A stretch of 64,000 nt of DNA from Paludibacteraceae bacterium (GTDB lineage: Bacteria > Bacteroidota > Bacteroidia > Bacteroidales > Paludibacteraceae), in NCBI GenBank assembly GCA_045532335.1, contig JAZSFR010000008.1:128643-192642 (forward strand), written 5' to 3'. The position numbers and the translations under genes were made by a program. Shown piece after piece: positions 1 to 14,869 of this stretch; the stretch's first letter is position 1; each line of letters starts with the position of its first letter. The notes beneath the pieces are model-generated. The model saw only the letters and a list, made by a program, of their open reading frames with translations. It was not told the DNA's origin and ran no database searches.

Positions 1-178
1 TATTCAAGATGCTGTAAACAACATGGGTAAACCTTGCGCTCCGTTACTGCTAAAATTCTACTGGGATCAACTATCATGGGATATTATTGCTCAGCAATTG
101 GGCTATGCCAACGCCAATAGTGCGAAAACACAAAAAAACAAATGCATGAACAAACTCAAAAATCTCTTTAAAGCATAA
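1..178 (+). CDS. ECF-type sigma-70 family RNA polymerase sigma factor, C-terminal fragment (5' end outside window)
   Basis: Frame 2 is open from the window edge to TAA at 176-178. The tail ...LSWDIIAQQLGYANANSAKTQKNKCMNKLKNLFKA resembles a sigma-70 region 4.2 helix-turn-helix. A membrane anti-sigma-like ORF starts 7 nt later. Confidence 0.6.
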   Translation, partial: IQDAVNNMGKPCAPLLLKFYWDQLSWDIIAQQLGYANANSAKTQKNKCMNKLKNLFKA

Positions 179-185
179 TATTGAT

Positions 186-869
186 ATGGCGAACAATACT
201 GATTTAATAGATAAATACCTCCGCAACGAATTGACAGAAGACGAAAAAAATCAATTCGAGAGGTTACTTTCCACCTCTTCCGAGTCATTAGGGGATAAAG
301 ACCTAGCTTCAGAAGTGGATTTACAAAAGGAAATCATCATCGCTATTCAAGCACGTGGCTTGAAAGAATGCCTACAACAGAAAGAACAGCAAATACGCTC
401 ACAACGTCTTCGTACTAAGCGTATTATTAAACTTTCTAGTTGGGGCATAAGTTCTTCGTTTGTTGCTGCTATTGTAGTATTAGCTATGATATTAACGCCT
501 ATGGCAAAAATAATGAAAACTGAAAGTAGCGAATTTGCTGCGTCTATTACTATTCCTACTACAAGAGGCGTTAACGACCAATCCGACGAGTTACAAAATC
601 AACTATTCTTCGTGTATAGTTATATTTCTCAAAATCAATTTGACCAAGCCAACGAACTCGCTCAGCAATTGATTAAGGAGATACAAATATCTCAACAAAG
701 TATCACATCTGAAGAAACACAAGATATACTTGACCAAGCACAATGGCTTCACGCAATATGCGAAATGCACAAAGGTAGAGTGTTGAAGGCTAAGAAACTT
801 TTAAAACAAATTGCCAATAGTGATAGCTATTACTCAGAACGTGCACAAGAAATATTAGATAAACTATAG
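186..869 (+). CDS. putative single-pass membrane anti-sigma factor with helical/TPR-like outside domain
   Basis: 227 aa. The N-terminus MANNTDLIDKYLRNELTEDEKNQFERLL is typical of anti-sigma N-domains. There is one TM segment (SSWGISSSFVAAIVVLAMILTP) and a helical C-terminal domain. It sits directly after the sigma gene. Confidence 0.5.
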   Translation: MANNTDLIDKYLRNELTEDEKNQFERLLSTSSESLGDKDLASEVDLQKEIIIAIQARGLKECLQQKEQQIRSQRLRTKRIIKLSSWGISSSFVAAIVVLAMILTPMAKIMKTESSEFAASITIPTTRGVNDQSDELQNQLFFVYSYISQNQFDQANELAQQLIKEIQISQQSITSEETQDILDQAQWLHAICEMHKGRVLKAKKLLKQIANSDSYYSERAQEILDKL

Positions 870-878
870 AATCTATTA

Positions 879-1730
879 ATGAACAAATTTATTTATATAT
901 TATTCGCTATTTGCTTACTCGCTACCAATGTTTGTTGGGCAACTAGACATGCCACAATAATAGGTATTGGTGATTATCCTATAGAAAATGGGTGGAAAAT
1001 AATCAATGGTGATAATGACATTCCATTGGTAAGAGAAATGCTATTGGTTAATGGATTTTTACTGGATGATATACATGAATTAAAAAATGCAGAAGCAACA
1101 GCAGATGCTATACGTCAAGAATTTGATAGACTAATAGATGTCGTGCAAAAAGAGGATGTTGTATATGTACATTTTTCTGGGCATGGTCAACAGATAACAG
1201 ATTTAAATGGAGATGAAGAAGATGGATATGATGAGGCTTGGATACCTTTTGATGCTCAACTTTCTTACACAAAGGGAGAATATGAAGGGGAAAATCATAT
1301 TTTAGATGATGAGATTCATCAATATCTACTTCGACTAAAGCAATGCGTAGGAGAGAAAGGAAAAATAATAGTAGTTGCAGACGCTTGTCATAGTGGGGAC
1401 AGTTGGCGTAGCGAAGAACAAGAAGCATTAGTCATTCGAGGTGTTGCAGATAAATTTATATTGCCATTTGAAGTACAACCATATACCAATCATGAGGAGT
1501 ATATCAATTGGATTTATATTTCAGCGTGTAAATCGTATCAATCCAACTACGAATATAATGGTGTTGGCTCGCTTACTTATGCATTACATCAACAGAAGGA
1601 AAAACTTACAGAAATAACATGCGAACAATTACTAATAGAAATTCAAACTACAATAAAAAAGATTATTATTTATACTCAAACACCAATAATAGAATCAGCA
1701 TATAATAAAACGCAGTATTTATTAAAGTAA
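879..1730 (+). CDS. caspase family (peptidase C14, metacaspase/orthocaspase-like) protein with signal peptide
   Basis: 283 aa. Hydrophobic leader MNKFIYILFAICLLATNVCWA. Catalytic-dyad motifs VYVHFSGHGQ (His codon 1182-1184) and VVADACHSG (Cys codon 1386-1388), plus DGYDEAWIPFD between them. Confidence 0.8.
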   Translation: MNKFIYILFAICLLATNVCWATRHATIIGIGDYPIENGWKIINGDNDIPLVREMLLVNGFLLDDIHELKNAEATADAIRQEFDRLIDVVQKEDVVYVHFSGHGQQITDLNGDEEDGYDEAWIPFDAQLSYTKGEYEGENHILDDEIHQYLLRLKQCVGEKGKIIVVADACHSGDSWRSEEQEALVIRGVADKFILPFEVQPYTNHEEYINWIYISACKSYQSNYEYNGVGSLTYALHQQKEKLTEITCEQLLIEIQTTIKKIIIYTQTPIIESAYNKTQYLLK

Positions 1731-1764
1731 ATTTAGGAAATAACCTTTATCATTCTTGTTGTAT

Positions 1765-4700
1765 ATGCAAAAATTATTACTCCAATTCTGCTGTCTTATT
1801 ATTTCTACTTTATCGCTAGCTCAGAATAGCGAAGCATATAAACATTCTACTATTGATGCTATTAATCGTGGTGATTATGAATCTGCGTTGAGTTATATTG
1901 ATAAAGTTGAAAATTGGCATGTAGATTATGTATGTAACATAAGTTCAGCTATGTCTTTTTTGCAATATATGGACTCAATAAACTACAAATCTTTCTCCGC
2001 AGATAGTTTGTGTATTTATATTGGTAAAGAAATTCAATCTGCTGGACATCAATATTTTCAAACAAATAAGTTCGAAGAAGCTTTACATTCTTATATGCTT
2101 CAAGCAGAATTATATAAACATCACATAGGAATCTTCCATCCAGAGTTTGCAACCTCACTACATAATATAGGAATAGTATATATACATTTAAGACATTATA
2201 AGGAAGCGGAGGAATATCTATCAATCGCATGTAAACTTCGAAAAAACATATTTGGATCAAATAACATAGATTATGCTATTTCTTTAGAAGGATTAGCAGG
2301 TGTGTACATAGAGACTAAGAATTATGATAAAGCTGAAACATATTTATTAGAGTCATTGGTAATACAAAAAAATAATACAGATATTACAACTAATTTGGAT
2401 TTTGCCAACACACTAAATACATTAGGGCATTTATATCAATCTACTAAGAACTATAAAAAAGCTAAGGAGTTTCTTTATGAAGCATTGAAGATAAGACAGG
2501 AAGTGTTAGGAACTTCAAATAATACTTATGCTATAACACTTGCTAATATTGGAATATGTTGCTACAATCTTAACGATTATAAATCCGCCGAAAAACACTT
2601 ATTAATAGCGTTAGATATATTAAGAAACAATAATGATGATGATTATACTGCTTCTACATTGAATAGTTTAGGAGTACTATATAATGATCTCGGCAGGTAT
2701 AGCACGGCTAAAAAATATTTGTTCGAAGCTTTAGAGATGCGCAAATGCATATATGGATTGGAACACTCTATTTATGCAGAGACATTACATGATATAAGTG
2801 TGTTATATTATGACAATGGAGATTATCAAAGTGCCAAGGCATATGCGGTTCAAGCAATGAAGATACGTAAGAATACTTTAGGTACATCACATCCTGACTA
2901 TGTAACATCTTTACAAGGCTTAGCGCATACATATAGTTCTTTAGGTGATTATCCGACTGCTATAAAATATTATACGGAAGCATTAAATATCCAGAATACT
3001 ATATTCGGAAAAATTAATCGAAATTATGCATCGTCGCTAAACGGATTAGGAATCTGTTATTTTTATATGGAAAATTTCAATATTGCAGAACAATATTTAT
3101 TGGAAGGATTAAGGATTCGTAGAAATATATTACCAATATCTCATGTTGAACACATATTATCTCTAAATAATTTAGGTTTATTCTACAACGCCATCGGTAA
3201 TTATCAAGAGGCTGAAAACTATTTATTGGAAGCATTAAGGATTCAAGAAAGTTCAGAAGATGTGCGAGATATAGATTTCTCTAATACATTAAATTCTTTA
3301 GGAGCATTTTACACTAGTATTGGTGATTACAAAATAGCTATAAAATATTTTTCAACGGCTCTAAAGATACTAGAAAGAACAGAAAATAGTTTTGATAAAA
3401 TAGCAACATTAAATAACCTTGGGGCTATATACAATGAATTACAGAATTATTCTATATCAGAAAAATACTTACTACGAGCTCTTGATATTTTTAAAAGAAA
3501 TGAAATACTCACGCCAGACTATACAACTTTACTAAATAACATAGGGCGTCTCTATATGGATATGGCAATATACAATGAGGCTCGAACCTATCTACATGAA
3601 GCGTTAGAATTTCACGGACAGCAATTTGGTACTTCTAATCTTACTTGTGCTACTATACGAAATAACTTAGGGATGTTGTATGATATAATAGGGGAAAAAT
3701 ATGATGCTAAAATACATTTTGCAAAAGCATTAGATATTCGCAAATCAATCTTAGGAGTCACTCACCCTGATTATGCAAGTTCTTTAAATAATATAGGATG
3801 CTATTATGCATTTCATGGTAATTACGATGTCGCTGAAGCTTATTTTACTGATGCATCAAAAATTTCCAAAAAATACTTTACTCACTCGCTAAACTACCTG
3901 ACGGAGAAACAAAGAAAATTGTATTGGGAAACAGAACAATCCCGTTTTAACAATATCTATCCTATATATGTATACAAATACCACTTCTCCCAACCCTCTA
4001 TCTCCACCTTCGCTTATGATAATGAACTATTCCGCAAAGGTTTACTACTATCCTCTTCTAACATCATTCGTCAATCAATATTAGAGAGTAATGACAGCAT
4101 ACTAATAGAACAATGGAATGAATTAGTAGGGATAAAACAAGTTATTATGAATTTGGAAGAAAAAGATCCCACTTCTACTAATTTGGTTCATTATAAAAAT
4201 CAAGCAGATTCGTTAGAGAAAATTGTCACGAAATCAAGTGCGATATTTAGAGAAACTAAGCAACAACAATCTATAACATGGGATAGTATTCAGCAATACC
4301 TTAACCCCGATGAAGTAGCTATTGAATATTTTATTGCACCACTAAATGAAGATAGTACGATGTATTGCGCTCTGCTACTTCGGCACGATAGCCAGTATCC
4401 TGAGTTAATCCCTCTCTGTGAAGAAAAAGAGATTGTGAATTGTCTATCACAAAATCGCACGAATGATATATATACTTTCGATACTAATTCTAAAACAATT
4501 TTTAATCTTATTTGGGATAAAATACTTCCACAAATCCATGAAGGAGAAACGATTTATTTCTCACCAGCAGGATTGCTACATCAAATAGCGATAGAGAATA
4601 TCCCTTATAATCAAACGCACACTATGTCTGATGTATATACAATGGTGCGTTTATCCTCAACACGAGAAATTGTGAAGAAGGACAAAAGCATCAAACATCA

Positions 4701-5517
4701 CACAGCAACTATTTATGGCGGCATATTCTATGATGTAGATAAAACTTCATTGCTTGCAGAAAGTCGGAATTATGACACGGAAGATATGTTTGCCTACCGC
4801 AGCATATCATCCACACTCCCCAATCGAGGTTCCGTATTATATCTGCCAGGAACTAAACAGGAAGCAGAATCAATTCACTCGCTTTTGACTAGCAATAACA
4901 TCACATCAACATTATATACTGCATCTAAAGCAAATGAGGAGTCGTTTAAGTCGCTTAGCGGTAAACATCGCAATATTCTTCATATTGGCACTCATGGTTT
5001 CTATTGGGAAGATAGTACTGCTCGAAAACAAGATTATTTTTCTCAACGCATACAACTGCAAATGTTAGGAGATAACCAATTGCAAAAACCAAGCATAGAC
5101 CCATTGACTCGTTGTGGTTTATTATTTGCAGGTAGTAATATTGCCTTGTCTGGTCATTCTAATGATTTGCCAGAAGGTGTGCAAGATGGTATATTGACTG
5201 CCAAAGAAATATCTTTAATGGATTTACGTGATGCAGACCTTGTTGTACTCTCGGCTTGCGAAACAGCTAAAGGTGATATCACCTCAGAAGGAATCTTTGG
5301 TTTACAGCGTGCCTTCAAGATGGCTGGTGTACAAACAATCATCATGAGTCTATGGAAGGTCAACGACCAAGCAACCCAAATGCTGATGACTGAATTTTAT
5401 ACCAATTGGATTAGTAAGAATCAATCGAAGCGTGAAGCCTTCAAGAATGCTCAAAATACAGTTCGAGCAAAATTTGAAGAACCAGAATATTGGGCTGGAT
5501 TCATATTATTAGATTAA
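1765..5517 (+). CDS. TPR-repeat / CHAT-domain protease-like protein with signal peptide
   Basis: ATG at 1765 (the track ORF starts at TTG 1756). Leader MQKLLLQFCCLIISTLSLAQN. More than 12 repeats of a 42-aa kinesin-light-chain-type TPR (A.SLN.LG.LY...G.Y..A..Y..AL.I). C-terminal CHAT motifs ILHIGTHG (His codon 4993-4995) and VVLSACETAKG (Cys codon 5257-5259). Confidence 0.85.
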   Translation: MQKLLLQFCCLIISTLSLAQNSEAYKHSTIDAINRGDYESALSYIDKVENWHVDYVCNISSAMSFLQYMDSINYKSFSADSLCIYIGKEIQSAGHQYFQTNKFEEALHSYMLQAELYKHHIGIFHPEFATSLHNIGIVYIHLRHYKEAEEYLSIACKLRKNIFGSNNIDYAISLEGLAGVYIETKNYDKAETYLLESLVIQKNNTDITTNLDFANTLNTLGHLYQSTKNYKKAKEFLYEALKIRQEVLGTSNNTYAITLANIGICCYNLNDYKSAEKHLLIALDILRNNNDDDYTASTLNSLGVLYNDLGRYSTAKKYLFEALEMRKCIYGLEHSIYAETLHDISVLYYDNGDYQSAKAYAVQAMKIRKNTLGTSHPDYVTSLQGLAHTYSSLGDYPTAIKYYTEALNIQNTIFGKINRNYASSLNGLGICYFYMENFNIAEQYLLEGLRIRRNILPISHVEHILSLNNLGLFYNAIGNYQEAENYLLEALRIQESSEDVRDIDFSNTLNSLGAFYTSIGDYKIAIKYFSTALKILERTENSFDKIATLNNLGAIYNELQNYSISEKYLLRALDIFKRNEILTPDYTTLLNNIGRLYMDMAIYNEARTYLHEALEFHGQQFGTSNLTCATIRNNLGMLYDIIGEKYDAKIHFAKALDIRKSILGVTHPDYASSLNNIGCYYAFHGNYDVAEAYFTDASKISKKYFTHSLNYLTEKQRKLYWETEQSRFNNIYPIYVYKYHFSQPSISTFAYDNELFRKGLLLSSSNIIRQSILESNDSILIEQWNELVGIKQVIMNLEEKDPTSTNLVHYKNQADSLEKIVTKSSAIFRETKQQQSITWDSIQQYLNPDEVAIEYFIAPLNEDSTMYCALLLRHDSQYPELIPLCEEKEIVNCLSQNRTNDIYTFDTNSKTIFNLIWDKILPQIHEGETIYFSPAGLLHQIAIENIPYNQTHTMSDVYTMVRLSSTREIVKKDKSIKHHTATIYGGIFYDVDKTSLLAESRNYDTEDMFAYRSISSTLPNRGSVLYLPGTKQEAESIHSLLTSNNITSTLYTASKANEESFKSLSGKHRNILHIGTHGFYWEDSTARKQDYFSQRIQLQMLGDNQLQKPSIDPLTRCGLLFAGSNIALSGHSNDLPEGVQDGILTAKEISLMDLRDADLVVLSACETAKGDITSEGIFGLQRAFKMAGVQTIIMSLWKVNDQATQMLMTEFYTNWISKNQSKREAFKNAQNTVRAKFEEPEYWAGFILLD

Positions 5518-5550
5518 CATTTTTATCGTAATAACACATGATACATTCTG

Positions 5551-5579
5551 AGATGGCAATTTTTTGCCATCTTTTTTTT
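5551..5579 (+). terminator. intrinsic terminator after TPR-CHAT gene
   Basis: Stem AGATGGCA / TGCCATCT, 6-nt loop, T8 run. Confidence 0.8.
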
Positions 5580-5679
5580 GCATAAAGGTTACTTTTCATA
5601 AAGTTATGTCATATATCAACAAAATCACAAAAAAGTGTGGTAAAAAGATATAATATTAACTTCTAAACCCCCAATTCTT

Positions 5680-6315
5680 ATGAAAACTGATTTAAATCAA
5701 GCAATCTTCATGGTGAAGAAGATGATCAAACAAATTAACACCAACGCTATTGACAAGGAAAAAAGTTGTCAACAACTAAATGCTATTGTTGAATTTGCAC
5801 AACAAGAGAATATGCTGCAAGCAGCCCAAACAGCACAGAAATGTTTAATTAAATTCAAATATACCACCTATCCTAAATCATTGCTAACTAGTCTATATAA
5901 ATTAAACGCTCTATTGTGTGCGAGAAAGAAGAAAATACGCATGATGGCGTATCGTGAAGCCAAAGCAAGAGCAAGTTTTTTCTTCGGGATAAAAAATATA
6001 AAAGATAAACATGATTTATCACTATACGATGTCGTTCGAATTCCCACGCAAGGAGGTATGCATTACTCAGTCATCACAAATATCAAGCGCAAGCAAGTTG
6101 TAGAATGTTATCCGATTACTTCTACTAACCAACAGCGATTATCTTTGGTAGGATGTGATTACTATCCACTGCAATCTACTTCCGAGAACGGCGAGCAACT
6201 ATTCCTTACATCATCACGCATACAAATACCATATGATGCTGCGGCTAAAAGTTTCATCCGAAAGTATGACAATCCTGCGGAAATAAAACTCGCTTTGACT
6301 GCTTTTGCTAATTAA
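5680..6315 (+). CDS. hypothetical protein; C-terminal half resembles a MazF/PemK-fold toxin domain
   Basis: 211 aa with a helical N-terminal ~100 aa. The C-terminal segment LYDVVRIPTQGGMHYSVITN...VVECYPITSTNQQ...LFLTSSRIQIPYDA...PAEIKLALTAF parallels the MazF layout (GDIvwVdf / RPavVls / vvPiTs / dQirtid / C-terminal helix). This is by-eye similarity only. Confidence 0.45.
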   Translation: MKTDLNQAIFMVKKMIKQINTNAIDKEKSCQQLNAIVEFAQQENMLQAAQTAQKCLIKFKYTTYPKSLLTSLYKLNALLCARKKKIRMMAYREAKARASFFFGIKNIKDKHDLSLYDVVRIPTQGGMHYSVITNIKRKQVVECYPITSTNQQRLSLVGCDYYPLQSTSENGEQLFLTSSRIQIPYDAAAKSFIRKYDNPAEIKLALTAFAN

Positions 6316-8411
6316 TGTATAACCTTAGAAAAAAAACAATTATTATGGATACAACATTCACTTTCGACAAAACAAACAAGGAACAATGCCTTGCATTAGA
6401 TTTAGTGCAAAACACCAACATCAGTTTCTTTCTTACTGGTTGCGCAGGCACAGGTAAAACCACATTCTTGCAATACATTCAGCAGAATGTAAAAAAACAA
6501 TTTGTATTGGTTGCACCCACAGGTATTGCTGCGCTTGTAGCAGGTGGCACAACTATACATTCATTCTTTGGTATGCCATGGGAACCTATCACGTCAAAAA
6601 CAACATTAGATGATTTTTCTTTGAATGATTCTAAATGGGAAACTTTACGAGCAGTAGATACCATTATTATTGATGAAGTTTCAATGGTTAGGTGTGATAT
6701 GATTGATGGTATTGATAAGGTGCTACGAGCAGCTACACTATCTTCACTTCCTTTTGGCGGAAAACAAATCATCTTTTCTGGCGACTTGTATCAGTTGGAT
6801 CCCGTTTATCAAACAAACGACGAGGGGTTGGTTAATTTCTATCAAGAAGAATACCATACATACAAACCCTATTTCTTTTATGCTCATGTATTCCAACAGA
6901 TGAAATTGTTCCGCATTGAATTGCAAAAAGTGTATCGCCAAAAGGATGCTCAATTCTTATCAATACTAAAACATATTAGGCAATGTGAATATATTAGAAA
7001 TGATATAGAGCTTCTCAATACTACAGGTTTAGCAAATGACACAGTTAATCAAATGTTAGATAAAGACGAACAACTTACCTTGAGCGCCTATAGAGCAACA
7101 GTGGATGCTATCAATGAAAAAAAGTTGCAAGAATTACCAGAACCAAGTTACACCTATACTGGACAGATAGAAGGAAAATTCAACAAAAACAATTTCCCTG
7201 CCCCCATGGAATTAACATTAAAAATAGGTGCTCGCGTTATGTTTGTAAAAAATGACTCTAACCATCTTTGGGTAAATGGCACATTGGGAACAGTAGAAAA
7301 TTTATCTGAAGAAGATATCGAAGTAGTATTGGACAATGGTTTGTTAGTAAATGTAGATCGTGAGCGTTGGGATGCAATAGAATACGAATATGACAAAGAA
7401 ACAGGTGTGTTAGATAAAGTAGTGGTTGGCTCATATTCGCAATATCCATTAACTTTAGCTTGGGCAATCACCATCCATAAAAGTCAAGGTATGACCTTTG
7501 ATAAAGTGACTATTGATTTAGAGCGTGGAATCTTTGCTGCTGGACAATTGTATGTTGCACTGAGTCGTGTAACTTCACTTAAAGGTATGGCATTAAATGC
7601 AATCATTAAACCATCGTATATAAAGCCCAAAAAGGAGGTGGAACAATTTATGCAACAAAATAGACTTCTGCATGATATTGAGAATGCAATTGTTCAAAAC
7701 GAAGAATATTACAAAGCTTTTAGAAAACAAGATTATGATGTGGCTATGAAAGAAATAAATCGTCAATTTGCTTCCGCCATAGAAGCACACGATATGGATT
7801 TTGCTAATATTCTTGCAACACACCTAATGGATAACACCTATAATCCTGAAGAATTCTTAGCTGATAGTCTGCCTCAATCAGTTATGATAGAAAAAGGCAT
7901 GCGCAACATGTTGACAAACGCAATCATTAGTGCTAAAAATGCACAGTATGATGAAGCGTTAAATTATATCAGACGAGGTCTCGTTCTTCTGCCATCTACA
8001 CATCTCTACTATCTAAAAAGTATAATATTGTTTGAACTAAAAAGGTTTGAAGAAGCGAAACAATTACATATGGAATGGAAACAATATTTGAAAAAACATT
8101 ACGATGAAGTCAATACGACTTATCTTCTATGTGTTGCCCGAACTAATTTTGAGTTAGGTTTACCTTACATCAAAGAAATGCAAAGAATAATACGACGCAA
8201 CAAGAGTTATTATCCATTTATTCTTCGTCTTCGCAAGATGATGTTACATGACTATGATTATTTGGAAGAAGATAATGTATTGGCTCAAGCGTTTAATTCT
8301 TCTGATAGTGATTTTGAAGAACTTCTACGCAATAGTTCTCCAGATGACTATGAAAAATTAATTGAAGCGATATTGAAGCTTCCTATCAAAAGCGAATCTA
8401 CTTCAAAATAA
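6315..8411 (+). CDS. Pif1/RecD-family (SF1B) DNA helicase with C-terminal TPR-like helical extension
   Basis: Walker A GCAGTGKTT (6438-6464), DEVSM Walker B, Pif1-type GIDKVLRAA...PFGGKQIIFSGDLYQLDPV, and UvrD_C-like ITIHKSQGMTFDKV...LYVALSRV. About 240 aa of helical repeats follow. The start is either ATG 6315 (overlaps the upstream stop as TAATG) or ATG 6345. Confidence 0.8.
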   Translation: MYNLRKKTIIMDTTFTFDKTNKEQCLALDLVQNTNISFFLTGCAGTGKTTFLQYIQQNVKKQFVLVAPTGIAALVAGGTTIHSFFGMPWEPITSKTTLDDFSLNDSKWETLRAVDTIIIDEVSMVRCDMIDGIDKVLRAATLSSLPFGGKQIIFSGDLYQLDPVYQTNDEGLVNFYQEEYHTYKPYFFYAHVFQQMKLFRIELQKVYRQKDAQFLSILKHIRQCEYIRNDIELLNTTGLANDTVNQMLDKDEQLTLSAYRATVDAINEKKLQELPEPSYTYTGQIEGKFNKNNFPAPMELTLKIGARVMFVKNDSNHLWVNGTLGTVENLSEEDIEVVLDNGLLVNVDRERWDAIEYEYDKETGVLDKVVVGSYSQYPLTLAWAITIHKSQGMTFDKVTIDLERGIFAAGQLYVALSRVTSLKGMALNAIIKPSYIKPKKEVEQFMQQNRLLHDIENAIVQNEEYYKAFRKQDYDVAMKEINRQFASAIEAHDMDFANILATHLMDNTYNPEEFLADSLPQSVMIEKGMRNMLTNAIISAKNAQYDEALNYIRRGLVLLPSTHLYYLKSIILFELKRFEEAKQLHMEWKQYLKKHYDEVNTTYLLCVARTNFELGLPYIKEMQRIIRRNKSYYPFILRLRKMMLHDYDYLEEDNVLAQAFNSSDSDFEELLRNSSPDDYEKLIEAILKLPIKSESTSK

Positions 8412-8437
8412 ATAACCAGCTAAAAATCCTCCTAACA

Positions 8438-8926
8438 ATGAAAAAACTAATCATTCTTGCTTTATTAGCGTTTGCACTTTTTACTTCATGCCAGCAACGC
8501 CCACAAGTGTTTGGCGTTTATATTGACGGTACTTTTGAACAGTTCTTAAAAGATTTGGATAAAGAGCCATGGAAATATCCAATCAACATTGACACGATTC
8601 AGCATCTTTCTAAAAGTGAAATTTCAATAAAAGCCTATTCTACAGAGGTAATTGATCTAAATGAAGATAGTGTAAAAGTCGATTCTATCTATATCGATAT
8701 TGAATTAGAAAAAGAAAAAATCAAACAATTCTCTTACACTCTTGATATGTCGGAAACTGATTTTAAAGCCATCCAGCATGCATACGAACGCATATATGGG
8801 AGTGTAAGATACCATGATATTACTGAATATGGTAACTATTGTTCTTGGATGATAGGAAAAACATCTTTATGGCTTAGTTACGATTTTGCTGAACAACAAA
8901 CAAAATATGAATACTTTATTAACTGA
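8438..8926 (+). CDS. hypothetical lipoprotein
   Basis: 162 aa. Signal peptide plus lipobox MKKLIILALLAFALFTSC. It starts 26 nt after the helicase stop. Confidence 0.6.
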   Translation: MKKLIILALLAFALFTSCQQRPQVFGVYIDGTFEQFLKDLDKEPWKYPINIDTIQHLSKSEISIKAYSTEVIDLNEDSVKVDSIYIDIELEKEKIKQFSYTLDMSETDFKAIQHAYERIYGSVRYHDITEYGNYCSWMIGKTSLWLSYDFAEQQTKYEYFIN

Positions 8927-9028
8927 TATAGTTCGCGTAATGTAATAAACATATACATGAGATAATACCTTCGGCACTCGAAATTTTTTTCACAAAAAAC
9001 AATCACGCGGGAATATTCGTAAAACGAC

Positions 9029-9088
9029 ATGTGGCGGAAGTGGCGGAATGGCGGAAAGTTTCCGCCACAAGCGCCACTTCCGCCATCT
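9029..9088. repeat. nested imperfect palindrome built from GTGGCGGAA words
   Basis: GTGGCGGAAGTGGCGGAATGGCGGAAAGTTTCCGCCACAAGCGCCACTTCCGCCAT. Inner pairing GGCGGAAA / TTTCCGCC, outer pairing TGGCGGAAGTGGCG / CGCCACTTCCGCCA. Confidence 0.8.
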
Positions 9089-9141
9089 GCGTAATTAAGA
9101 ACGGAGTATTGATTTTCAGGGAGATGGGATGTTGGAAGCAA

Positions 9142-9185
9142 TTCCTGCGGACTTTTTGAGGAGGCTGAAAATGTGTCCGCAGGAA
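9142..9185. repeat. 11-bp perfect inverted repeat
   Basis: TTCCTGCGGAC (9142-9152) and GTCCGCAGGAA (9175-9185), followed by the near-duplicate GTCCGTAGGA. Confidence 0.85.
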
Positions 9186-9252
9186 GTCCGTAGGAGAGTG
9201 GGCTTATTCTTTAAGCCATTGATTATGAGAGATAGTGACACTTGAAAAGTGT

Positions 9253-9311
9253 GTGCGCAATCTGCGAATTATGCGAATTCGCACTTTTCGCAGAAATCGC
9301 AGTTTGCGCAC
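9253..9311. repeat. nested inverted repeats
   Basis: Three nested pairs: GTGCGCAA / TTGCGCAC (9253-9260 / 9304-9311), TCTGCGAA / TTCGCAGA (9261-9268 / 9287-9294), and the central palindrome TGCGAATTCGCA (9272-9283). Confidence 0.85.
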
Positions 9312-9502
9312 ATAGAAATGTATGGATAGGAGGTAGTGGCACTAGCCGTACTAGTGATTCTAGTTGCACTGGTTGAAGATTCGCAGAAACTTACTTCTCA
9401 TCCATCCTAAGTGGTGTCGGAGTGGTAACGGTGTTGCTATAAGATAAGCAAGAGATGTGAATCACATAGTAATCCTATACTAATCTTATAGTAATCACAT
9501 AG

Positions 9503-9524
9503 TATGAACCCGTCATGAACCCGT
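9503..9524. repeat. tandem 11-mers (T/C)ATGAACCCGT x2, part of a dispersed intergenic element
   Basis: TATGAACCCGT CATGAACCCGT. The second copy of the element is at 29700-29721 (TATAAACCCGT TATGAACCCGT). Both are preceded by GGAGTGGTAACGG (9419-9431 and 29677-29689). Confidence 0.8.
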
Positions 9525-9604
9525 GATTAGTAGTTAATAGTTAATAATTAATATCTTTCTTAGATAGATAAAATCTATCTTTTTTGCAAATAATCTGTGT
9601 TTTA

Positions 9605-9636
9605 CTTGCATATGTGGAAAAAAAATTATACTTTTG
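9605..9636 (+). promoter_or_regulatory. promoter of thiL (-33 CTTG / -7 TActTTTG)
   Basis: TACTTTTG at 9629-9636 and CTTG at 9605-9608, with a 20-nt spacer. Confidence 0.5.
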
Positions 9637-9660
9637 TGCCCGATTTTAATATGCATAACT

Positions 9661-10686
9661 ATGGCTACACAGATTTCGACATTAGGGGAGTTTGGTTTGA
9701 TTAAGCACTTGACCAAGGATTTTCAATCACAACAAGCCTCTACACAAAAGGCAATTGGCGATGATGCTGCGGTACTCAACTTCGGCAACAAACGCACATT
9801 GGTGACTACTGACCTATTGTTGGAAGGTATTCACTTTAACCTTGAATATGTGCCCCTCAAACACCTTGGCTATAAAGCGGCCGTGGTGAACTTCTCCGAT
9901 ATCTACGCCATGAATGGCAAGCCTACACAAATAACTGTGTCTCTAGGTATTAGCCAACGATTCTCTGTAGAAGACCTAGAACAACTATATGCCGGCATCA
10001 AACTCGCTTGCGAGCGCTACGGCGTTGATCTCGTAGGTGGTGACACCTGTTCATCCATGACCGGTTTGACCATCTCTATCACCTGTTTGGGCGAAGGATA
10101 TGACTCCGATATTGTTTATCGCAACGGAGCACAAGTCAATGACTTGATCTGTGTGACGGGTAATCTAGGTACTGCGTATATGGGTTTGCAATTGCTTGAG
10201 CGCGAGCGCATCGTGATGAACGCGGACGAGAATGCAACTCCTGCTTTTGAAGGTCGTGAGTACTTGCTTGAGCGTCAACTCAAACCAGAGGCACGCAAAG
10301 ATATCATAGAACAACTGCACAAAGCGGGCATCAAACCAACAGCGATGATGGACATCTCGGACGGATTGAGCAGCGAGCTCAAACATATCTGCTCGCAATC
10401 GGGAGTGGGTTGCGCAATCTACGAAGATAAACTGCCAATCGACTACCAAGCTGCGGCGCTAGCCGAGGAGATGAACCTCAATATCGTAACCTGCGCACTA
10501 AACGGCGGTGAAGATTACGAACTCTTATTCACCTGCAAACTGGATGATTATGAGAAGCTCGTTCCAATAGAGGATGTCTATCTCATCGGTCATATCACCA
10601 AAGTCGAGCACGGACTGAACATCGTGGGACGCAATGGCGAAGAACTGCCTCTTCAAGCCCAAGGATGGAGCGCTTTCAAGGAGTGA
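9661..10686 (+). CDS. thiL: thiamine-monophosphate kinase
   Basis: MATQISTLGEFGLIKHL...IGDDAAVL is an AIR-synthase-related fold typical of ThiL. ATG 9661 is chosen because the -7 promoter box (9629-9636) lies inside the longer TTG-started track ORF. Confidence 0.85.
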   Translation: MATQISTLGEFGLIKHLTKDFQSQQASTQKAIGDDAAVLNFGNKRTLVTTDLLLEGIHFNLEYVPLKHLGYKAAVVNFSDIYAMNGKPTQITVSLGISQRFSVEDLEQLYAGIKLACERYGVDLVGGDTCSSMTGLTISITCLGEGYDSDIVYRNGAQVNDLICVTGNLGTAYMGLQLLERERIVMNADENATPAFEGREYLLERQLKPEARKDIIEQLHKAGIKPTAMMDISDGLSSELKHICSQSGVGCAIYEDKLPIDYQAAALAEEMNLNIVTCALNGGEDYELLFTCKLDDYEKLVPIEDVYLIGHITKVEHGLNIVGRNGEELPLQAQGWSAFKE

Positions 10687-10758
10687 TAATTCCCACTGAT
10701 CTCACGGATAATCACAGAAAGACAACAAATACTCGAAACTTATTAAACTCTATATAGA

Positions 10759-13455
10759 ATGGACGCAAAATACAATCCTAAAGACATTGAAGCCAAATGG
10801 TATCAATATTGGCAAGACAAGAAGTTATTTCACAGTACTCCTGACGGTCGTGAGGCATACACCGTAGTTATTCCTCCACCAAACGTGACAGGTGTGCTGC
10901 ACATGGGACACGTACTCAACAATACTATCCAAGATATCTTGGTTCGTCGCGCTCGCCTTGAGGGCAAGAACGCTTGTTGGGCACCTGGTACTGACCACGC
11001 TAGTATTGCTACCGAAGCTAAGGTTATCAAACGCCTCAAAGAGCAAGGCATCAACAAGAGTGATTTGACTCGTGAGGAGTTCCTCAAGCACGCTTGGGCA
11101 TGGACTGAGGAGCACGGAGGTATCATCTTGAAGCAATTGCGCACTTTGGGCTGCTCTTGCGATTGGGACCGTACGGCTTTCACTATGGACGAGACACGCT
11201 CCAAAGCTGTGATTGATGTGTTCTGCGACCTATACAACAAGGGATTGATCTACCGCGGCTTGCGTATGGTGAACTGGGATCCAGAGCGCCAGACTGCCCT
11301 CTCTGACGAGGAGGTGATCTACCAAGAGGAGCATAGCAAGTTGTACTATATGAAGTACTACATAGTGGAAGGTGATGAGGTTCAGGAGTTCAGTGGTTCA
11401 GAGGAGAATGTTATTCATAAAGATGAGAAAGGTTACTACGCCGTAGTGGCTACCACTCGCCCTGAGACCATCATGGGTGACGTGGCAATGTGTATCAACC
11501 CTAAAGACCCTAAGAACCAATGGCTGAAAGGCAAGCACGTGATAGTACCAAAAGTAGGTCGTGTGATTCCTGTGATTGAGGACCGCTACGTGGAGATTGA
11601 GTTCGGTACCGGTTGTTTGAAGGTGACTCCTGCACACGACGTGAATGACTACGCATTGGGACAAAAATATGACCTCACCACCTATGATATCTTTACCGCA
11701 GACGCGCACGTGAATGTAGAGGGATTGGAGGCAGATATCTATCCTAATGTAGCTGCATACCAAGGCATGGACCGCTTCGATTGCCGCAAGCAAATCGTAG
11801 TGGATCTACAAGCCGAAGGATTGGTGGAGAAAGTGGAAGACTACACCAACAAGGTGGGTTATTCTGAGCGTACGAATGTGCCTATCGAGCCACGCTTGAG
11901 TTTGCAATGGTTTATCCGTATGCAGCACTTTGCAGATATCGCTCTTCCACCAGTAATGGAGGATGATATTGTGTTCTATCCAACCAAATACAAAAACACT
12001 TATCGCAACTGGCTTGAGAATATCAAAGACTGGTGTATCTCACGCCAACTCTGGTGGGGACATCGTATTCCTGCGTACTACGAGAAAGCGTTGCTAGAGG
12101 AGACAGGCGCAGAGAACTATCCAGAGGATAAGATCATCGTAGCGCCAAACATCGAGGCAGCGGCCGAAAAGTCTGGCTTGAGCATAGATGCGTTGGTACA
12201 AGACGAAGGTGCATTGGATACATGGTTCTCATCATGGCTCTGGCCAATCAGCCTCTTTGATGGCATTGAGAACCCTGGTAATGAGGAGATTAACTATTAC
12301 TACCCAACCGCTGACTTGGTGACTGGTCCAGATATCATCTTCTTCTGGGTAGCACGTATGATTATGGCGGGTTATGAGTATATCGGCAAGATGCCATTCC
12401 GTCATGTATATTTCACCGGTATTGTGCGCGATAAATTGGGTCGCAAGATGTCTAAGTCATTGGGTAACAGCCCTGATCCATTGGATCTCATCGAGCGCTT
12501 TGGTGCGGACGGCGTGCGTATGGGTATGATGCTCTGCGCTCCTGCGGGCAATGATATCTTGTTCGACGATAGCCTCTGCGAACAAGGACGTAACTTCTGC
12601 AATAAGATTTGGAACTGCTTCCGATTGATTAAGGGTTGGGCGGTCAGCGACCGAGGCGAACAAAGCGATGCCGCAGCTTGGGGCGTTGAGTGGTTTGAAG
12701 CAGTATTGGCTAAAGCACAAACAGAGGTGGCTGACTTGTTCAGTAAGTACCGTTTGAGCGAGGCGTTGATGGCTATCTACAAGCTCTTCTGCGACGAGTT
12801 CTCTGGTTGGTACTTGGAGATCATCAAACCTGCATACGGTCAACCTATTGACAAGGCAACCTATGAGAAGACTATCCAATTTATGGATACGATGCTCAAG
12901 TTGTTGCACCCATTCATGCCATTCATTACCGAGGAGTTGTGGCAAGCAATTGAGGAGCGCCAAGAGGGCGAATCACTCATGGTTTCTCCTTTGGAGAAGG
13001 TTCAGGAGTTCAGTGGTTCAGAGGTGAAGGAAGCTGAACAATGCTTTGACATCATCTCTGCTATCCGCAATATCCGTGCGCAAAAGAATATCTCTCCTAA
13101 GGAGATGTTGACATTGGTTTGTCCAGAGGCATTGCCAGCAGTGGTAGTGAAATTGGCGAATGTAGAGTTGGCTGTAGGTGCGGAGAAGAGTGCTGGTAGC
13201 GCATCTTTCATCATCGGTACCACCGAGTATAGCGTGCCATTGGAGAAGTTCATCAATGTGGACGAAGAATTGAAGAAACTCGAGGCCGAGTTGGCTCACC
13301 AAGAGGGCTTCTTGCGTGGTGTGATGGGCAAGCTGAACAACGAGCGCTTTGTGCAAAACGCTAAGCCAGAGGTGGTAGAGTTGGAGCGCAAGAAGAAAGC
13401 GGATGCTGAGAGTCGCATTGCCACCATCAAGGAGGCAATTGCTCAACTGCGTTGA
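10759..13455 (+). CDS. valS: valine--tRNA ligase
   Basis: 898 aa. Class I HIGH-type motif ([11 protein letters not shown]), KMSKS present, C-terminal coiled coil. Confidence 0.97.
11378..11404 (+). repeat. 27-nt perfect repeat inside valS, copy 1
   Basis: AGGTTCAGGAGTTCAGTGGTTCAGAGG is identical to 12998-13024, in the same reading frame, and encodes VQEFSGSE. Confidence 0.9.
12998..13024 (+). repeat. 27-nt perfect repeat inside valS, copy 2
   Basis: Identical to 11378-11404. Confidence 0.9.
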
Positions 13456-13517
13456 GCGGGACGGGCAAAGCCCTAAAGGACGCTTCGCTATAGGTTATAG
13501 GCAGTTTGTAAACTAAT

Positions 13518-13778
13518 ATGAGAGATTTAGCATCACTTCGTGAGGAGATTGACCAATTGGATGAACAGTTGTGGGGGGTTATTGGTAAGCGTGCAGATGT
13601 GGTTCGCCAAATAGGCGAATGGAAACGTCAGCACGGTGAGCAGGTAATCCAACCTGAACGATGGCAAGAGGTCTTACAACATTGTCAATCTGTAGCCGAT
13701 AGACACGGACTGAGTGAGACGGTGGTTCAAGAAGTGATGGAAGCAATACACAACGAGAGCGTCAGGATAGAGTCCTGA
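13518..13778 (+). CDS. chorismate mutase (AroQ type, small)
   Basis: 86 aa. LREEIDQLDEQLWGVIGKRADVVRQIGEWKRQHG is typical of the CM_2 helical fold. Confidence 0.75.
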   Translation: MRDLASLREEIDQLDEQLWGVIGKRADVVRQIGEWKRQHGEQVIQPERWQEVLQHCQSVADRHGLSETVVQEVMEAIHNESVRIES

Positions 13779-13873
13779 TGCTTTTGTTATCTAGTTTGGC
13801 ACGGTTTTTGTAATATTCAACACAGGAAAAAATATTCCTTGTTTTGGCGTGTAATATATAAACTATTTATCAT

Positions 13874-14869
13874 ATGCAAACAACAGTTGATATTCGTGAA
13901 TTGCAAGAGCGCATTGAGCGCGAGAGTTCTTTTGTAGATGCTCTAACCATGGGCATGAACCAAATGATTGTGGGTCAAAAACATTTGGTAGAGAGTCTTT
14001 TGATTGGTCTTTTGGCAGATGGACATATCCTATTGGAGGGTGTTCCTGGTTTGGCAAAAACCTTGGCCATTAAAACATTGGCACAGTTGGTGAAAGCGGA
14101 TTTTAGCCGTATTCAGTTTACTCCTGACCTCTTGCCTGCCGATGTGATTGGTACACAAATCTACTCACAAAAATCAGAGGAGTTTAAGGTAAAACAAGGC
14201 CCTATCTTTGCTAACTTCGTATTGGCAGATGAGATCAACCGTGCTCCAGCTAAAGTGCAATCTGCGTTGTTGGAGGCTATGCAAGAGCGTCAAATCACCA
14301 TCGGTGAGCAGACATATAAACTCGATGAGCCATTCCTCGTGCTCGCTACTCAAAACCCTGTGGAGCAAGAGGGTACTTATCCATTGCCAGAAGCACAAAC
14401 AGACCGTTTTATGCTTAAGGTAGTGATCGGCTATCCTAAGAAAGAGGAAGAGAAACAGATTATTCGTCAAAACATCACAGGCGAGAAGGTTGTGGTCAAT
14501 CCTATCTTGAGCACTGAGGATATTCTCAAAGCACGCGAGATTGTGCGTGAGGTGTATATCGATGAAAAGATTGAGCGTTACATCGTAGATATCGTGTTTG
14601 CTACTCGTGAGCCTGAGGCATATGGTTTGGAAGGTCTGAAACCAATGATTAACTTTGGTGGCTCCCCACGTGCTAGTATCAACTTGGCATTGGCAGCCCG
14701 TGCATACGCCTTTATCCATCGTCGCGGTTATGTGATCCCAGAGGATGTACGAGCAGTTTGCTACGATGTACTTCGTCATCGTATTGGTCTTACCTATGAG
14801 GCTGAGGCTAATAATATCACAACCGAAGATGTGATTACTGAGGTTTTGAACGCTGTACAAGTACCATAA
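13874..14869 (+). CDS. MoxR-family AAA+ ATPase (first gene of Bat/aerotolerance-type operon)
   Basis: 331 aa. HILLEGVPGLAKT Walker A, ILADEINRAPAKVQSALLEAMQE, and the MoxR-typical VLATQNPVEQEGTYPLPEAQTDRF. Confidence 0.95.
   Translation: MQTTVDIRELQERIERESSFVDALTMGMNQMIVGQKHLVESLLIGLLADGHILLEGVPGLAKTLAIKTLAQLVKADFSRIQFTPDLLPADVIGTQIYSQKSEEFKVKQGPIFANFVLADEINRAPAKVQSALLEAMQERQITIGEQTYKLDEPFLVLATQNPVEQEGTYPLPEAQTDRFMLKVVIGYPKKEEEKQIIRQNITGEKVVVNPILSTEDILKAREIVREVYIDEKIERYIVDIVFATREPEAYGLEGLKPMINFGGSPRASINLALAARAYAFIHRRGYVIPEDVRAVCYDVLRHRIGLTYEAEANNITTEDVITEVLNAVQVP

Follow-up and report, generated by a model that had tools for sequence, protein, structure and literature searches.

The DdvS/DdvA pair of Myxococcus xanthus consists of an ECF sigma factor and a transmembrane anti-sigma factor with a periplasmic TPR-CHAT part, and controls a CBASS/CRISPR defence island (PMC11506125). 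In the CalpL-CalpT-CalpS system of type III CRISPR, CalpT, the anti-sigma factor of an ECF-like sigma factor, has a MazF-like domain, and the sigma factor is retained by the CalpT fragment containing this domain until that fragment is degraded (10.1101/2024.05.08.593097; 10.1101/2022.08.22.504715). In B. subtilis MazF, residues R25 and T48, the equivalents of R29 and T52 in the E. coli protein (EcMazF), are needed for toxicity (PMC8634880). The locus described here lies at the start of a 64,000-nucleotide stretch of DNA from a Paludibacteraceae bacterium (the window), in which genes for a sigma factor and two proteases are followed by genes for a 211-aa protein, a Pif1-family helicase and a lipoprotein. 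Its features are as follows.

1-185, + strand: 3' end of an ECF-type sigma factor gene, truncated by the window edge (frame-2 translation)
186-869, + strand: anti-sigma-like single-pass membrane protein, 227 aa, directly after the sigma gene
879-1730, + strand: caspase-domain (Peptidase_C14) protein with a signal-peptide-like N-terminus; Pfam PF00656, E 8.5e-18
1756-5517, + strand: TPR-CHAT protease, 1253 aa, with a signal-peptide-like N-terminus; Pfam TPR_12 7.7e-98, CHAT 2e-45
5550-5580, + strand: intrinsic-terminator-like hairpin and T-run, end of the sigma/protease operon
5587-5616, + strand: alternative-sigma promoter-like motif GGTTAC-N17-CATATAT; proposed -35 at 5587-5592, -10 at 5610-5615
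5625-5640, + strand: inverted repeat TCACA-N6-TGTGG, located after the proposed -10 and before the start codon
5680-6315, + strand: small ORF, 211 aa; stop TAA at 6313-6315
5680-5991, + strand: N-terminal four-helix domain of the small ORF, residues 1-104 (AF2 model)
6016-6315, + strand: predicted C-terminal CcdB/MazF-fold domain of the small ORF, residues 113-211 (AF2 model, Foldseek); motifs YDVVxxPTQGGxH and CYPxT
6315-8411, + strand: helicase ORF, 698 aa; TAATG overlap with the small-ORF stop
6315-7754, + strand: Pif1-family SF1B helicase core, residues 1-480; Pfam PIF1 9.2e-31, Pif1_2B_dom 1.6e-5
7755-8411, + strand: helical-repeat (TPR-like) C-terminal tail of Pif1, the gene's most variable region
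8438-8926, + strand: lipoprotein, 162 aa, lipobox LFTSC, 26 nt past the Pif1 stop

Fold and family of the 211-aa protein

The 211-aa protein is a divergent relative of the MazF/CcdB toxins and belongs to a family without database annotation. Its AF2 model, built on an alignment of 34 sequences (pLDDT 95.5, pTM 0.83), comprises an N-terminal domain of four helices (residues 5-20, 26-42, 46-61 and 65-104, pLDDT >85) and a C-terminal portion of ~100 aa that is predicted to have the CcdB/MazF/PemK fold. The best 11 Foldseek matches to this model in the PDB are all CcdB/MazF toxins (11/11), with probabilities of 0.96-1.00, target-normalised TM scores of 0.53-0.64, rmsd of 3.3-4.8 Å and modest E-values (0.014-0.08), and structure matches in a viral library include phage proteins labelled 'Endoribonuclease' and 'PemK-like' together with proteins of 159-184 aa (E 1.9e-6 to 1e-3). 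A sequence-only reading of this DNA had proposed the MazF/PemK fold by eye from the motifs LYDVVRIP, MHYSVITN, VVECYPITSTNQQ, LFLTSSRIQIPYDA and PAEIKLALTAF; all five are in the translation, their order is that of the MazF key positions, and the Foldseek matches bear the proposal out. The helical extension of ~100 aa that it described ahead of the MazF-like region corresponds to the four-helix domain of the model.

When the family was aligned by hhalign with five MazF/Kid/ChpBK sequences, three of the five verified against the PDB, the result was P 6e-4 over 84 columns at a probability of 28%, with H128 paired to EcMazF R29 and P145/T147 paired to EcMazF P50/T52. The essential Thr of MazF is present within P-x-T (T147); the essential Arg (EcMazF R29, BsMazF R25) is absent and His128 stands in its place. 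Within the family H128 is kept in 63/65 sequences, T147 in 62/65 and P145 in 65/65, and the R29 position is a near-invariant His, with Arg in one member. Given this replacement of the catalytic Arg, the domain could bind without being catalytic. Residues K14, K17, K85, M89 and R92 of the N-terminal domain are each kept in at least 56 of the 65 sequences.

The protein has no match in Pfam, NCBIfam, PADLOC, PHROGs or the PDB sequences and profiles, and none of the 34 family members checked matches any Pfam model, those for PemK and CcdB included. The four-helix domain has no specific structural or sequence match, and the protein has neither a signal peptide nor a TM segment. An exhaustive profile search recovers 42 representative clusters at 50% identity, 34 of them with E<=1e-10; members are ~210-230 aa long, and nearly all are found in Bacteroidales of animal guts. 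There is no antitoxin ORF between the terminator and the ATG at 5680, and the gene on the 3' side is the 698-aa helicase. A family without database recognition thus gains a predicted fold, candidate active-site residues (H128 and T147) and a regulatory context.

The sigma/protease cluster and a shared promoter-like motif

The translation of positions 1-185 is identical to the C-terminus of a 182-aa protein at a related locus (L003:2069-2617), and the full-length sigma protein of that locus matches Pfam Sigma70_r2 (E 2.1e-5) with 24.7 bits, barely above the cut-off of 24. The 227-aa protein encoded next has its N-terminus in the cytoplasm, a single hydrophobic segment at residues ~80-108 (by hydropathy window) and a TPR-like C-terminus; its Pfam TPR matches are weak and it matches no anti-sigma domain, and we infer from its position and topology that it is an anti-sigma factor. 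Its homologues flank family genes in the loci L010, L040 and L051. Both proteases are apparently exported, a call made by eye rather than with a predictor, from the signal-like N-termini MNKFIYILFAICLLATNVCWA (caspase) and MQKLLLQFCCLIISTLSLAQN (TPR-CHAT). The TPR-CHAT protein is 29-99% identical to its syntenic copies.

The terminator at the end of this operon is kept, with compensatory changes, in L026, L048, L007 and L032. The sequence-only reading had placed the small ORF and helicase in an AT-rich accessory stretch between this terminator and a lipoprotein gene, and these surroundings are confirmed, with a GC content of 30-36% over bases 1-9000 versus 44-49% beyond and a lipobox in the gene at 8438-8926. 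By taking the terminator as a boundary, however, it missed the stronger linkage to the upstream ECF sigma/anti-sigma/caspase/TPR-CHAT cluster and to the promoter-like motif. The lipoprotein gene, which has terminator-like sites on its 3' side (9184-9217), probably closes the transcription unit that includes the small ORF and Pif1; it is present in L042, and an unrelated 267-aa gene occupies its position in L001, L003 and L004.

The motif at 5587 is the sole strong match in the 64-kb window on either strand (PWM 22.6 bits, the next 14.7). Its family-wide form, G[GT]TTAC-N16-18-CATA[TA]A, stands ahead of family genes, in the sense direction, in ~11 lineages, and in most related loci it lies 50-95 nt 5' of family and neighbouring genes, the adjacent genes so preceded including those for a 44-aa peptide, a 154-aa protein, a 107-aa ORF, a TPR-Asp protease and a JAB protein. 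In L034 and L040 the -10 element takes a variant form, and scans of L013, L030, L039, L043 and L044 gave no match to the motif. The sigma operon itself has the ordinary Bacteroidetes promoter element TAnnTTTG. The inverted repeat downstream of the motif is kept in L026 and L007 (TCACA..TGTGA) and L048 (TCAC..GTGA) and is altered in both arms in L032 (ACACG..CGTGT); it may act as an operator or form a hairpin in the 5'-UTR. If sigma control is confirmed, the motif would let the regulon of such sigma factors be read from genomes.

The small gene keeps company mainly with the upstream sigma/protease cluster, via the shared promoter-like motif, and Pif1, though it recurs as co-cargo, is optional and not an obligate partner. 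Among 17 lineages of the family defined at 70% identity, CHAT genes are neighbours in 7, caspase genes in 4, anti-sigma-like genes in 4 and a downstream Pif1 in 3, and six lineages have no CHAT, caspase, anti-sigma, sigma or Pif1 neighbour within the sequence available. A sigma gene adjoins family genes in two lineages only, many contigs being too short to show one. The company at other family loci is defence-like (a JAB+E2+E1 cassette, a type III restriction-modification system and a SIR2 protein), and tandem paralogues of the family gene occur at some.

The Pif1 helicase and its TPR-like tail

The assignment of the downstream ORF to the Pif1 family of SF1B helicases, made earlier from its motifs, is upheld by Pfam (PIF1, PF05970, 107.6 bits, cut-off 25.9; 2B domain, PF21530, 25.0 bits, cut-off 23.9) and by the bacterial Pif1 chains 8bnv, 5ftb and 5fhd in the PDB (E 1e-85 to 1e-98). 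The Walker motifs GCAGTGKTT and DEVSM are present in the translation, as are PFGGKQIIFSGDLYQLDPV and TIHKSQGMTFDKV. So is the extra tail of ~240 aa, of helical-repeat type: in the window protein TPR_2 (17.5 bits) and TPR_8 (13.8 bits) are both under the Pfam cut-off, full-length homologues match the TPR models PF13432 and PF12895, and the solved BaPif1 chains carry the PDB title 'TPR domain protein'. A Pif1 core with such a tail is an ordinary and very widespread Bacteroidales architecture, with at least 7999 relatives at E<=1e-30, and in PADLOC-DB v2 the protein's matches are confined to the unspecific helicase components of RecD-like and candidate PDC models. DNA homology with L003, L004 and L006 ends at 7758, and at the protein level the N-terminus is 99% identical to the L003 copy but the tail 32-57%. 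The variable, defence-like neighbourhoods and mosaic tail of this Bacteroides-type Pif1 argue against a purely housekeeping role.

The ORFs, their TAATG overlap and the alternative ATG at 6345, which leaves a gap of 29 nt, are all present as originally described. Orthologues align from residue 6 or begin at the Met corresponding to 6345 (688-aa forms), and three related loci have a gap of 17-29 nt where the window has the overlap; this makes the overlapping start a possible but unconserved one, and the conserved start is probably ATG 6345.

Proposed regulation, alternative readings and comparison with known systems

We infer, with about even confidence for and against, that the genes for the MazF-like effector, Pif1 and the lipoprotein form a sigma-induced operon that is cargo of the upstream island. 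The caspase and TPR-CHAT proteins, periplasmic in this scheme, would sense and process an envelope signal, this processing would free the sigma factor from the membrane anti-sigma factor, and the freed sigma factor would drive the promoter GGTTAC-N17-CATATA at 5587, yielding a single transcript for the MazF-like protein, the Pif1-TPR helicase and the lipoprotein. The MazF-like domain would act as a growth-arrest effector, either RNA-cleaving or RNA-binding, and the N-terminal domain would be its built-in regulator, a role proposed because no antitoxin gene is present. If true, an antitoxin-less MazF relative with His for the catalytic Arg would widen the superfamily's known chemistry and modes of control. 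A more general form of the scheme, which we regard as speculative and rather doubtful, is a modular early-warning defence of gut Bacteroidales, in which a periplasmic caspase/TPR-CHAT sensor frees an ECF sigma factor that turns on interchangeable cargo via G[GT]TTAC-N16-18-CATA[TA]A; the commonest cargo would be a His-variant MazF-like RNase held in check by its own N-terminal domain in place of an antitoxin, and in some lineages it would work with a Pif1-TPR helicase whose variable tail detects the nucleic acid or protein of an invader.

The sequence-only reading had instead suggested that the MazF-like protein and Pif1-TPR are a dedicated two-gene defence or toxin system, with the helicase sensing nucleic acid and activating or restraining the toxin. 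The genes do lie on one strand, either overlapping or no more than 31 nt apart, with no promoter motif between them, and the Pif1 tail is hypervariable, as is often so in sensor domains. The pairing itself holds in all members of the window's clade (85-99% identity) and recurs in L034, where the small protein is 35% and Pif1 42% identical, and in L038, where Pif1 lies two genes further on; presence in three separate lineages exceeds random adjacency, so there may be some functional tie to Pif1. It does not extend to ~11 informative family lineages that lack a downstream Pif1, among them the nearest outgroup homologues L026, L007 and L013 (43-52% identity), which have other genes downstream, nor to L040, 62% identical to L034, where a 152-aa gene takes Pif1's place; conversely, four Pif1-TPR homologues of other Bacteroidales have no small gene upstream. 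Recombination has left breakpoints both inside the two genes and between them, and their alleles are shuffled independently (the small protein is 97% and Pif1 69% identical in L003, 86% and 98% in L005), and no PADLOC system matches. These data support an obligate toxin-helicase pair only in part, and we consider a dedicated two-gene system unlikely.

Two further readings place the proteins of the locus in other roles. The MazF-fold protein might act on the neighbouring ECF sigma factor as a soluble anti-sigma or sigma-binding protein, providing feedback or a second checkpoint; CalpT is a precedent for a MazF-like domain in an anti-sigma factor, the family is linked to sigma/protease clusters, its N-terminal domain is a helical bundle like anti-sigma domains, and the catalytic Arg of MazF is missing. 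However, a membrane anti-sigma-like gene already stands next to the sigma gene, there is neither a DUF2080 nor PDB sequence similarity, the near-invariant His and Thr at MazF catalytic positions suggest chemistry over mere binding, and a cargo role better fits the tandem paralogues and the loci where no sigma gene is visible, which leaves such a regulator quite unlikely in our view. It is also conceivable, if improbable, that the CHAT or caspase protease (elsewhere the Asp protease or JAB) cuts helix 4 at KEKxxxMxxRE (residues 85-93) and frees a C-terminal toxin. Proteases of the CHAT, caspase, TPR-Asp and JAB types, four kinds in all, recur beside the family, conservation covers K85, M89 and R92, the released piece (residues 93-211) would be about the size of MazF, and Craspase/Csx30, CalpL/CalpT and the gasdermins offer precedents. 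Yet the caspase, TPR-CHAT and TPR-Asp proteases have signal-peptide or lipoprotein-like N-termini and the small protein has no signal or TM segment, which would put enzyme and substrate in different compartments, and the helix-4 segment is modelled as rigid, at pLDDT >95, with no exposed linker.

A sigma-induced cargo operon, the reading we prefer, can be set beside several described systems. With MazF/PemK/Kid the small protein shares the predicted barrel-plus-helix fold, the motif order and the P-x-T with its essential Thr, but it differs in having His for Arg, a beta1-beta2 loop shortened to PTQGG and an N-terminal extension of ~105 aa, and its gene has a putative alternative-sigma-type promoter rather than the upstream antitoxin and autoregulation of a TA operon. 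Structures of the gyrase poison CcdB (3tcj, 4elz, 1vub and 2vub) are among the best structural matches (target-normalised TM 0.54-0.62), but hhalign against E. coli CcdB gives no meaningful alignment (probability 0.5%), and the conserved P-x-T and His positions suit MazF better. The helicase resembles BaPif1 (5ftb, 5fhd) and 8bnv and 8bns in its core and 2B domain, and thousands of Bacteroidales homologues in its length and TPR-like tail; it differs from BaPif1 in that the Pif1 of the window's clade is putatively co-transcribed with a MazF-like gene and its tail is mosaic between strains. Like CalpL-CalpT-CalpS, the locus genetically links an ECF-type sigma factor and a protease with a protein that has a MazF-like domain, but it has no SAVED-Lon protease, DUF2080 or CRISPR context, its domain order is different and no sequence similarity was detected. 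It resembles DdvS/DdvA in that a putative ECF sigma factor, an anti-sigma-like protein with one TM-like segment and a putatively extracytoplasmic TPR-CHAT protein are encoded beside variable cargo with a non-housekeeping promoter-like motif. In the window, however, TPR-CHAT and caspase are separate secreted-type genes, unfused to the anti-sigma, and the putatively sigma-regulated cargo is a MazF-like protein plus Pif1 rather than CBASS/CRISPR. The comparison suggests that a DdvS/DdvA-like logic may operate in gut Bacteroidales, leading from envelope sensing to the transcriptional release of defence or growth-arrest cargo.

Organization of the locus and its relatives

The small ORF and the Pif1 gene lie in an AT-rich part of the window (GC 30-36% in bases 1-9000 versus 44-49% in the thiL/valS region beyond), with a sigma/protease operon to their left and a lipoprotein gene to their right. 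Both ORFs are present in the ORF list and in the raw sequence.

1-5517: operon of an ECF sigma gene (cut by the window edge) and genes for a 227-aa protein, a Peptidase_C14 caspase and a 1253-aa TPR-CHAT protein
5550-5580: terminator-like hairpin with a T-run, upstream of the small ORF
5587-5616: promoter-like motif
5680-6315, + strand: small ORF, 211 aa
6315-8411, + strand: Pif1 ORF, 698 aa
8438-8926: lipobox protein (lipoprotein), 162 aa, following Pif1

The sequence-only reading proposed that a MazF-fold-like ORF and a Pif1 helicase with a TPR-like tail form a two-gene toxin/defence pair, and its description of the locus is accurate. The TAATG overlap of the two ORFs and the alternative in-frame ATG at 6345 (29-nt gap) both occur in the raw sequence, all of the peptide motifs it quoted are found in the two translations, and the AT-rich setting, upstream terminator and downstream lipoprotein are as described. 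Conservation does not extend to the overlapping Pif1 start: alignments to orthologues begin at residue 6, the gap is 17-29 nt in three related loci, and many 688-aa database copies begin at the Met equivalent to 6345. No antitoxin-sized ORF is present upstream of the small ORF in the ORF list or raw sequence, and an Rfam scan of window positions 1-14000 returned no RNA families.

Six Paludibacteraceae genome loci share the order TPR-CHAT, small ORF, Pif1, with mosaic identities to the window: 29-99% for CHAT, 86-99% for the small ORF, and ~97% or ~68% for Pif1, in all combinations. DNA homology to locus L001 begins only at 5656, and that to L003, L004 and L006 ends at 7758, where the tail of Pif1 starts; Pif1 is 99% identical to the L003 copy in its N-terminal part but 32-57% identical in the tail (7755-8411). 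These alignments indicate that the locus is a recombination mosaic, with the TPR-like tail of Pif1 in at least two very different alleles. The TPR-CHAT gene is hypervariable between strains.

A family of MazF-type proteins

Searches with the small protein of Pfam, NCBIfam, PADLOC, PHROGs and the PDB (phmmer and profile) gave only coiled-coil noise on its N-terminal helices. A word-indexed homology search found seven close clusters, comprising near-identical proteins and one at 49% identity, and the genome matches are all Paludibacteraceae MAGs from animal guts. This search was insufficient to reveal the family, which emerged through an exhaustive profile search yielding 42 representative clusters with members of 205-235 aa. 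Residues D117, P122, T123, G125, G126, H128, C143, P145, T147 and L154 are invariant or nearly so in the alignment. Loci were sought with a degenerate DNA pattern for [YF]D[VI][VI]xxPT[QE]GGxH, giving four further genome loci and 30 metagenome matches, 24 of which have clear family members; L033, L036, L047, L052 and L053 (no family member) and L046 (marginal, E 1.2e-4) were set aside. The pattern has no match in viral contigs, and thus there is no evidence at this level that the family is phage-borne. Locus-derived members clustered at 70% identity form 17 lineages. None of Pfam, NCBIfam, PADLOC and PHROGs has an entry for the family.

An AlphaFold2 model built with the family alignment (pLDDT 95.5, pTM 0.83) folds residues 5-104 into four helices, residues 117-195 into a beta-barrel and residues 199-210 into a helix at the C-terminus. 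Its 11 best Foldseek matches in the PDB are without exception CcdB/MazF toxins (probability 0.96-1.00; target-normalised TM 0.53-0.64; rmsd 3.3-4.8 A), and a shallower first model retrieved the same families. Matches to predicted viral structures are statistically stronger (E 1.9e-6 to 1e-3); among them are a crAss-like phage protein and entries that bear the names 'Endoribonuclease' and 'PemK-like', each 159-235 aa long and of similar architecture. The C-terminal profile was aligned by hhalign with E. coli MazF, Kid, B. subtilis EndoA, S. aureus MazF and ChpBK (the first three verified against the PDB), matching over 84 columns with P 6e-4 and pairing H128 with R29 of E. coli MazF and P145-x-T147 with P50-x-T52. 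A CcdB-type assignment was dropped, as the hhalign probability to CcdB is 0.5% and the MazF alignment covers the entire domain. The fold originally assigned by eye is thus borne out by the model, Foldseek and hhalign.

In B. subtilis MazF the residues equivalent to R29 and T52, R25 and T48, are needed for toxicity (PMC8634880). The C-terminal part of the small protein is a divergent MazF-type domain in which the essential Thr is kept and the essential Arg is replaced by an invariant His; a ~105-aa helical N-domain precedes it. Two features distinguish the family from known MazF/PemK toxins: the helical domain, the His-variant fold and the lack of an antitoxin in combination, and the putative sigma-type promoter.

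Pif1 and other neighbours of the family

The 698-aa ORF encodes an SF1B helicase of the Pif1 family, with a Pfam PIF1 score of 107.6 bits and the Pif1 2B domain also above threshold. Its nearest solved relatives are bacterial Pif1 helicases (E 1e-85 to 1e-98 in a PDB search), including Bacteroides Pif1 chains with the deposited title 'TPR domain protein'. At least 7999 proteins are homologous at E<=1e-30, and among the matches listed many are 650-730 aa with 96-98% query coverage. The helical tail reported as 'extra' is therefore the ordinary Bacteroidales Pif1 tail, the whole architecture being very common. The idea that Pif1 is a housekeeping gene fixed in this place was rejected, as the flanks differ in relatives and homologues occur in unrelated contexts; the lipoprotein, thiL and valS of the window flank were not found in L001-L006.

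Four Pif1-TPR homologues at 40-47% identity (loci L055-L058) have as their sources other Paludibacteraceae, a Phocaeicola and a taxonomically unassigned metagenome contig. No family member was found near them, and the promoter-like motif was not found upstream of their Pif1-TPR genes. Those at L056:1075-7046, L057:2362-8878 and L055:911-8267 adjoin WYL-domain regulators, AAA_15/AAA_21 ATPases with a ~330-aa partner, and runs of small uncharacterised ORFs. Variable, defence-like neighbourhoods may thus be a common setting for the Bacteroidales Pif1-TPR type.

Pif1 lies downstream of the family gene in three of the 17 lineages: the window's clade, L034 (small protein 35% and Pif1 42% identical) and L038, where two ~150-aa genes intervene. 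About 11 informative lineages have a different gene there, including the nearest outgroups, in which the family gene is followed by a 154-aa protein (L026), a 44-aa acidic peptide (L007), a second family copy (L048) or nothing (L013); in L040, 62% identical to L034, a 152-aa protein takes the place of Pif1. Pif1 is a recurrent yet optional neighbour, given three co-occurrences against these alternatives and the Pif1-TPR homologues without a family gene.

Recurrent genes at family loci
L026:2918-3382; L040:224-682 (-); L038:249-1239 (-): 144-173 aa protein family (MANEIALFRNFGLATP...) directly 3' of family genes in three lineages; no Pfam or PADLOC match
L012:6389-7799 (-); L048:364-1260: tandem MazF-like family paralogues, each with its own promoter-like motif
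L001:10759-11562; L003:10799-11602; L004:10796-11578; L010:6440-7270: 260-276 aa lipoprotein-like protein; no Pfam match

The L026 member of the 144-173 aa family has its own copy of the motif, as does the highly acidic 44-aa ORF (MWYDEEGYRHDDFEG...; L007:1159-1293) that occupies the position of Pif1 after the 49%-identical homologue. Two secreted-type TPR-aspartyl-protease genes follow the L012 paralogues. The 260-276 aa lipoprotein-like gene follows Pif1 in three relatives and is also present in the Pif1-less L010; the window has its unrelated 162-aa lipoprotein in that place.

Across the 17 lineages, family genes neighbour CHAT (7), caspase (4), anti-sigma-like (4) and secreted-type TPR-aspartyl protease (4) genes. 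Other family loci include a JAB, E2 and E1 cassette, a type III restriction-modification system and a SIR2 protein, which constitute defence-like company. The cassette (117/128-aa, 308-aa, family gene, 177-aa, JAB, E2-like, E1 (ThiF)) is found at L041:188-5644, L011, L051:6035-11684 and L025, adjoins a sigma/anti-sigma/CHAT cluster in L051, and resembles ubiquitin-like conjugation defence modules; its 308-aa and 177-aa proteins have no database match.

A promoter-like motif and a putative sigma-controlled island

The motif G[GT]TTAC-N16-18-CATA[TA]A recurs in the ~100 nt preceding family genes of only 25-50% identity. It also precedes the 44-aa and 154-aa genes and a 107-aa ORF in the islands, both tandem paralogues and the TPR-aspartyl protease of L012, and the JAB gene and others in L051, L025 and L041.

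Sites of the motif
Window: 5587-5616
L010: 2942, 3024, 3445
L026: 1832, 2573
L012: 7856, 7103, 6373 (-)
L007: 367, 1108
L051: 6026, 7415, 9055, 12289

Scanned with a position-weight matrix, the 64-kb window has a single strong site, at 5587, which scores 22.6 bits; the runner-up reaches 14.7, and shuffles gave 2.6 hits of >=14. The motif is not repeated between the small ORF and Pif1, so that these two genes and the lipoprotein gene look like one transcription unit, probably ending near 9184-9217. Downstream of the proposed -10 and ahead of the start codon, a short inverted repeat (5625-5640) is conserved across homologous loci, with both arms changed in L032 (ACACG..CGTGT versus TCACA..TGTGA); it might serve as an operator or form a hairpin in the 5'-UTR. 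The sigma operon has an ordinary (housekeeping) Bacteroidetes TAnnTTTG element, and its autoregulation by the same motif was rejected, there being none upstream of sigma genes. Preceding many different cargo genes, the putative promoter motif may mark out the regulon controlled by this group of ECF sigmas, and is a more telling link of the small gene than neighbour counts.

The window begins within the ECF-type sigma gene, whose C-terminus is identical to that of a 182-aa Sigma70_r2 protein of L003. The 227-aa protein encoded next has one TM-like segment and is a putative anti-sigma, and the N-termini of the caspase and TPR-CHAT proteins are hydrophobic and, by inspection, signal-peptide-like. 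The analysis establishes the fold, the conserved residues, the neighbour counts and the sharing of the promoter-like motif. Beyond these, we propose that the exported caspase and TPR-CHAT protein process an envelope signal, freeing the sigma factor from its membrane anti-sigma to act at the promoter-like motif. The induced MazF-like protein would be an RNA-directed growth-arrest effector, with its N-domain perhaps standing in for an antitoxin.

Other roles for the small protein must be weighed against this. The two-gene reading is partly supported: the three independent co-occurrences speak for a dedicated pair with Pif1, but Pif1-less lineages, Pif1 homologues lacking a family gene, and shuffling of alleles between strains speak against it and make it unlikely. 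The MazF-like domain of CalpT (10.1101/2024.05.08.593097; 10.1101/2022.08.22.504715) raises the idea that the small protein is a non-catalytic anti-sigma, which we regard as decidedly doubtful given that the island already has a membrane anti-sigma-like gene, that the small protein has no DUF2080, and that the catalytic positions carry an almost invariant His and Thr. The recurrence of proteases beside family genes makes it tempting to see a toxin that is activated when its conserved helix-4 segment is cut; this is nonetheless improbable, since the proteases look exported, the small protein looks cytoplasmic and the model shows that segment as a rigid helix.

The sigma-release model lends itself to direct testing and offers a way into the study of sigma-controlled cargo islands of gut Bacteroidales. 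It is modelled on DdvS/DdvA of M. xanthus, in which an ECF sigma, whose anti-sigma has a periplasmic TPR-CHAT, turns on a CBASS/CRISPR defence island (PMC11506125). By analogy, window 1-5517 looks like a split version of this envelope sensor; the regulatory logic would be alike, whereas the components are split and the cargo is different.
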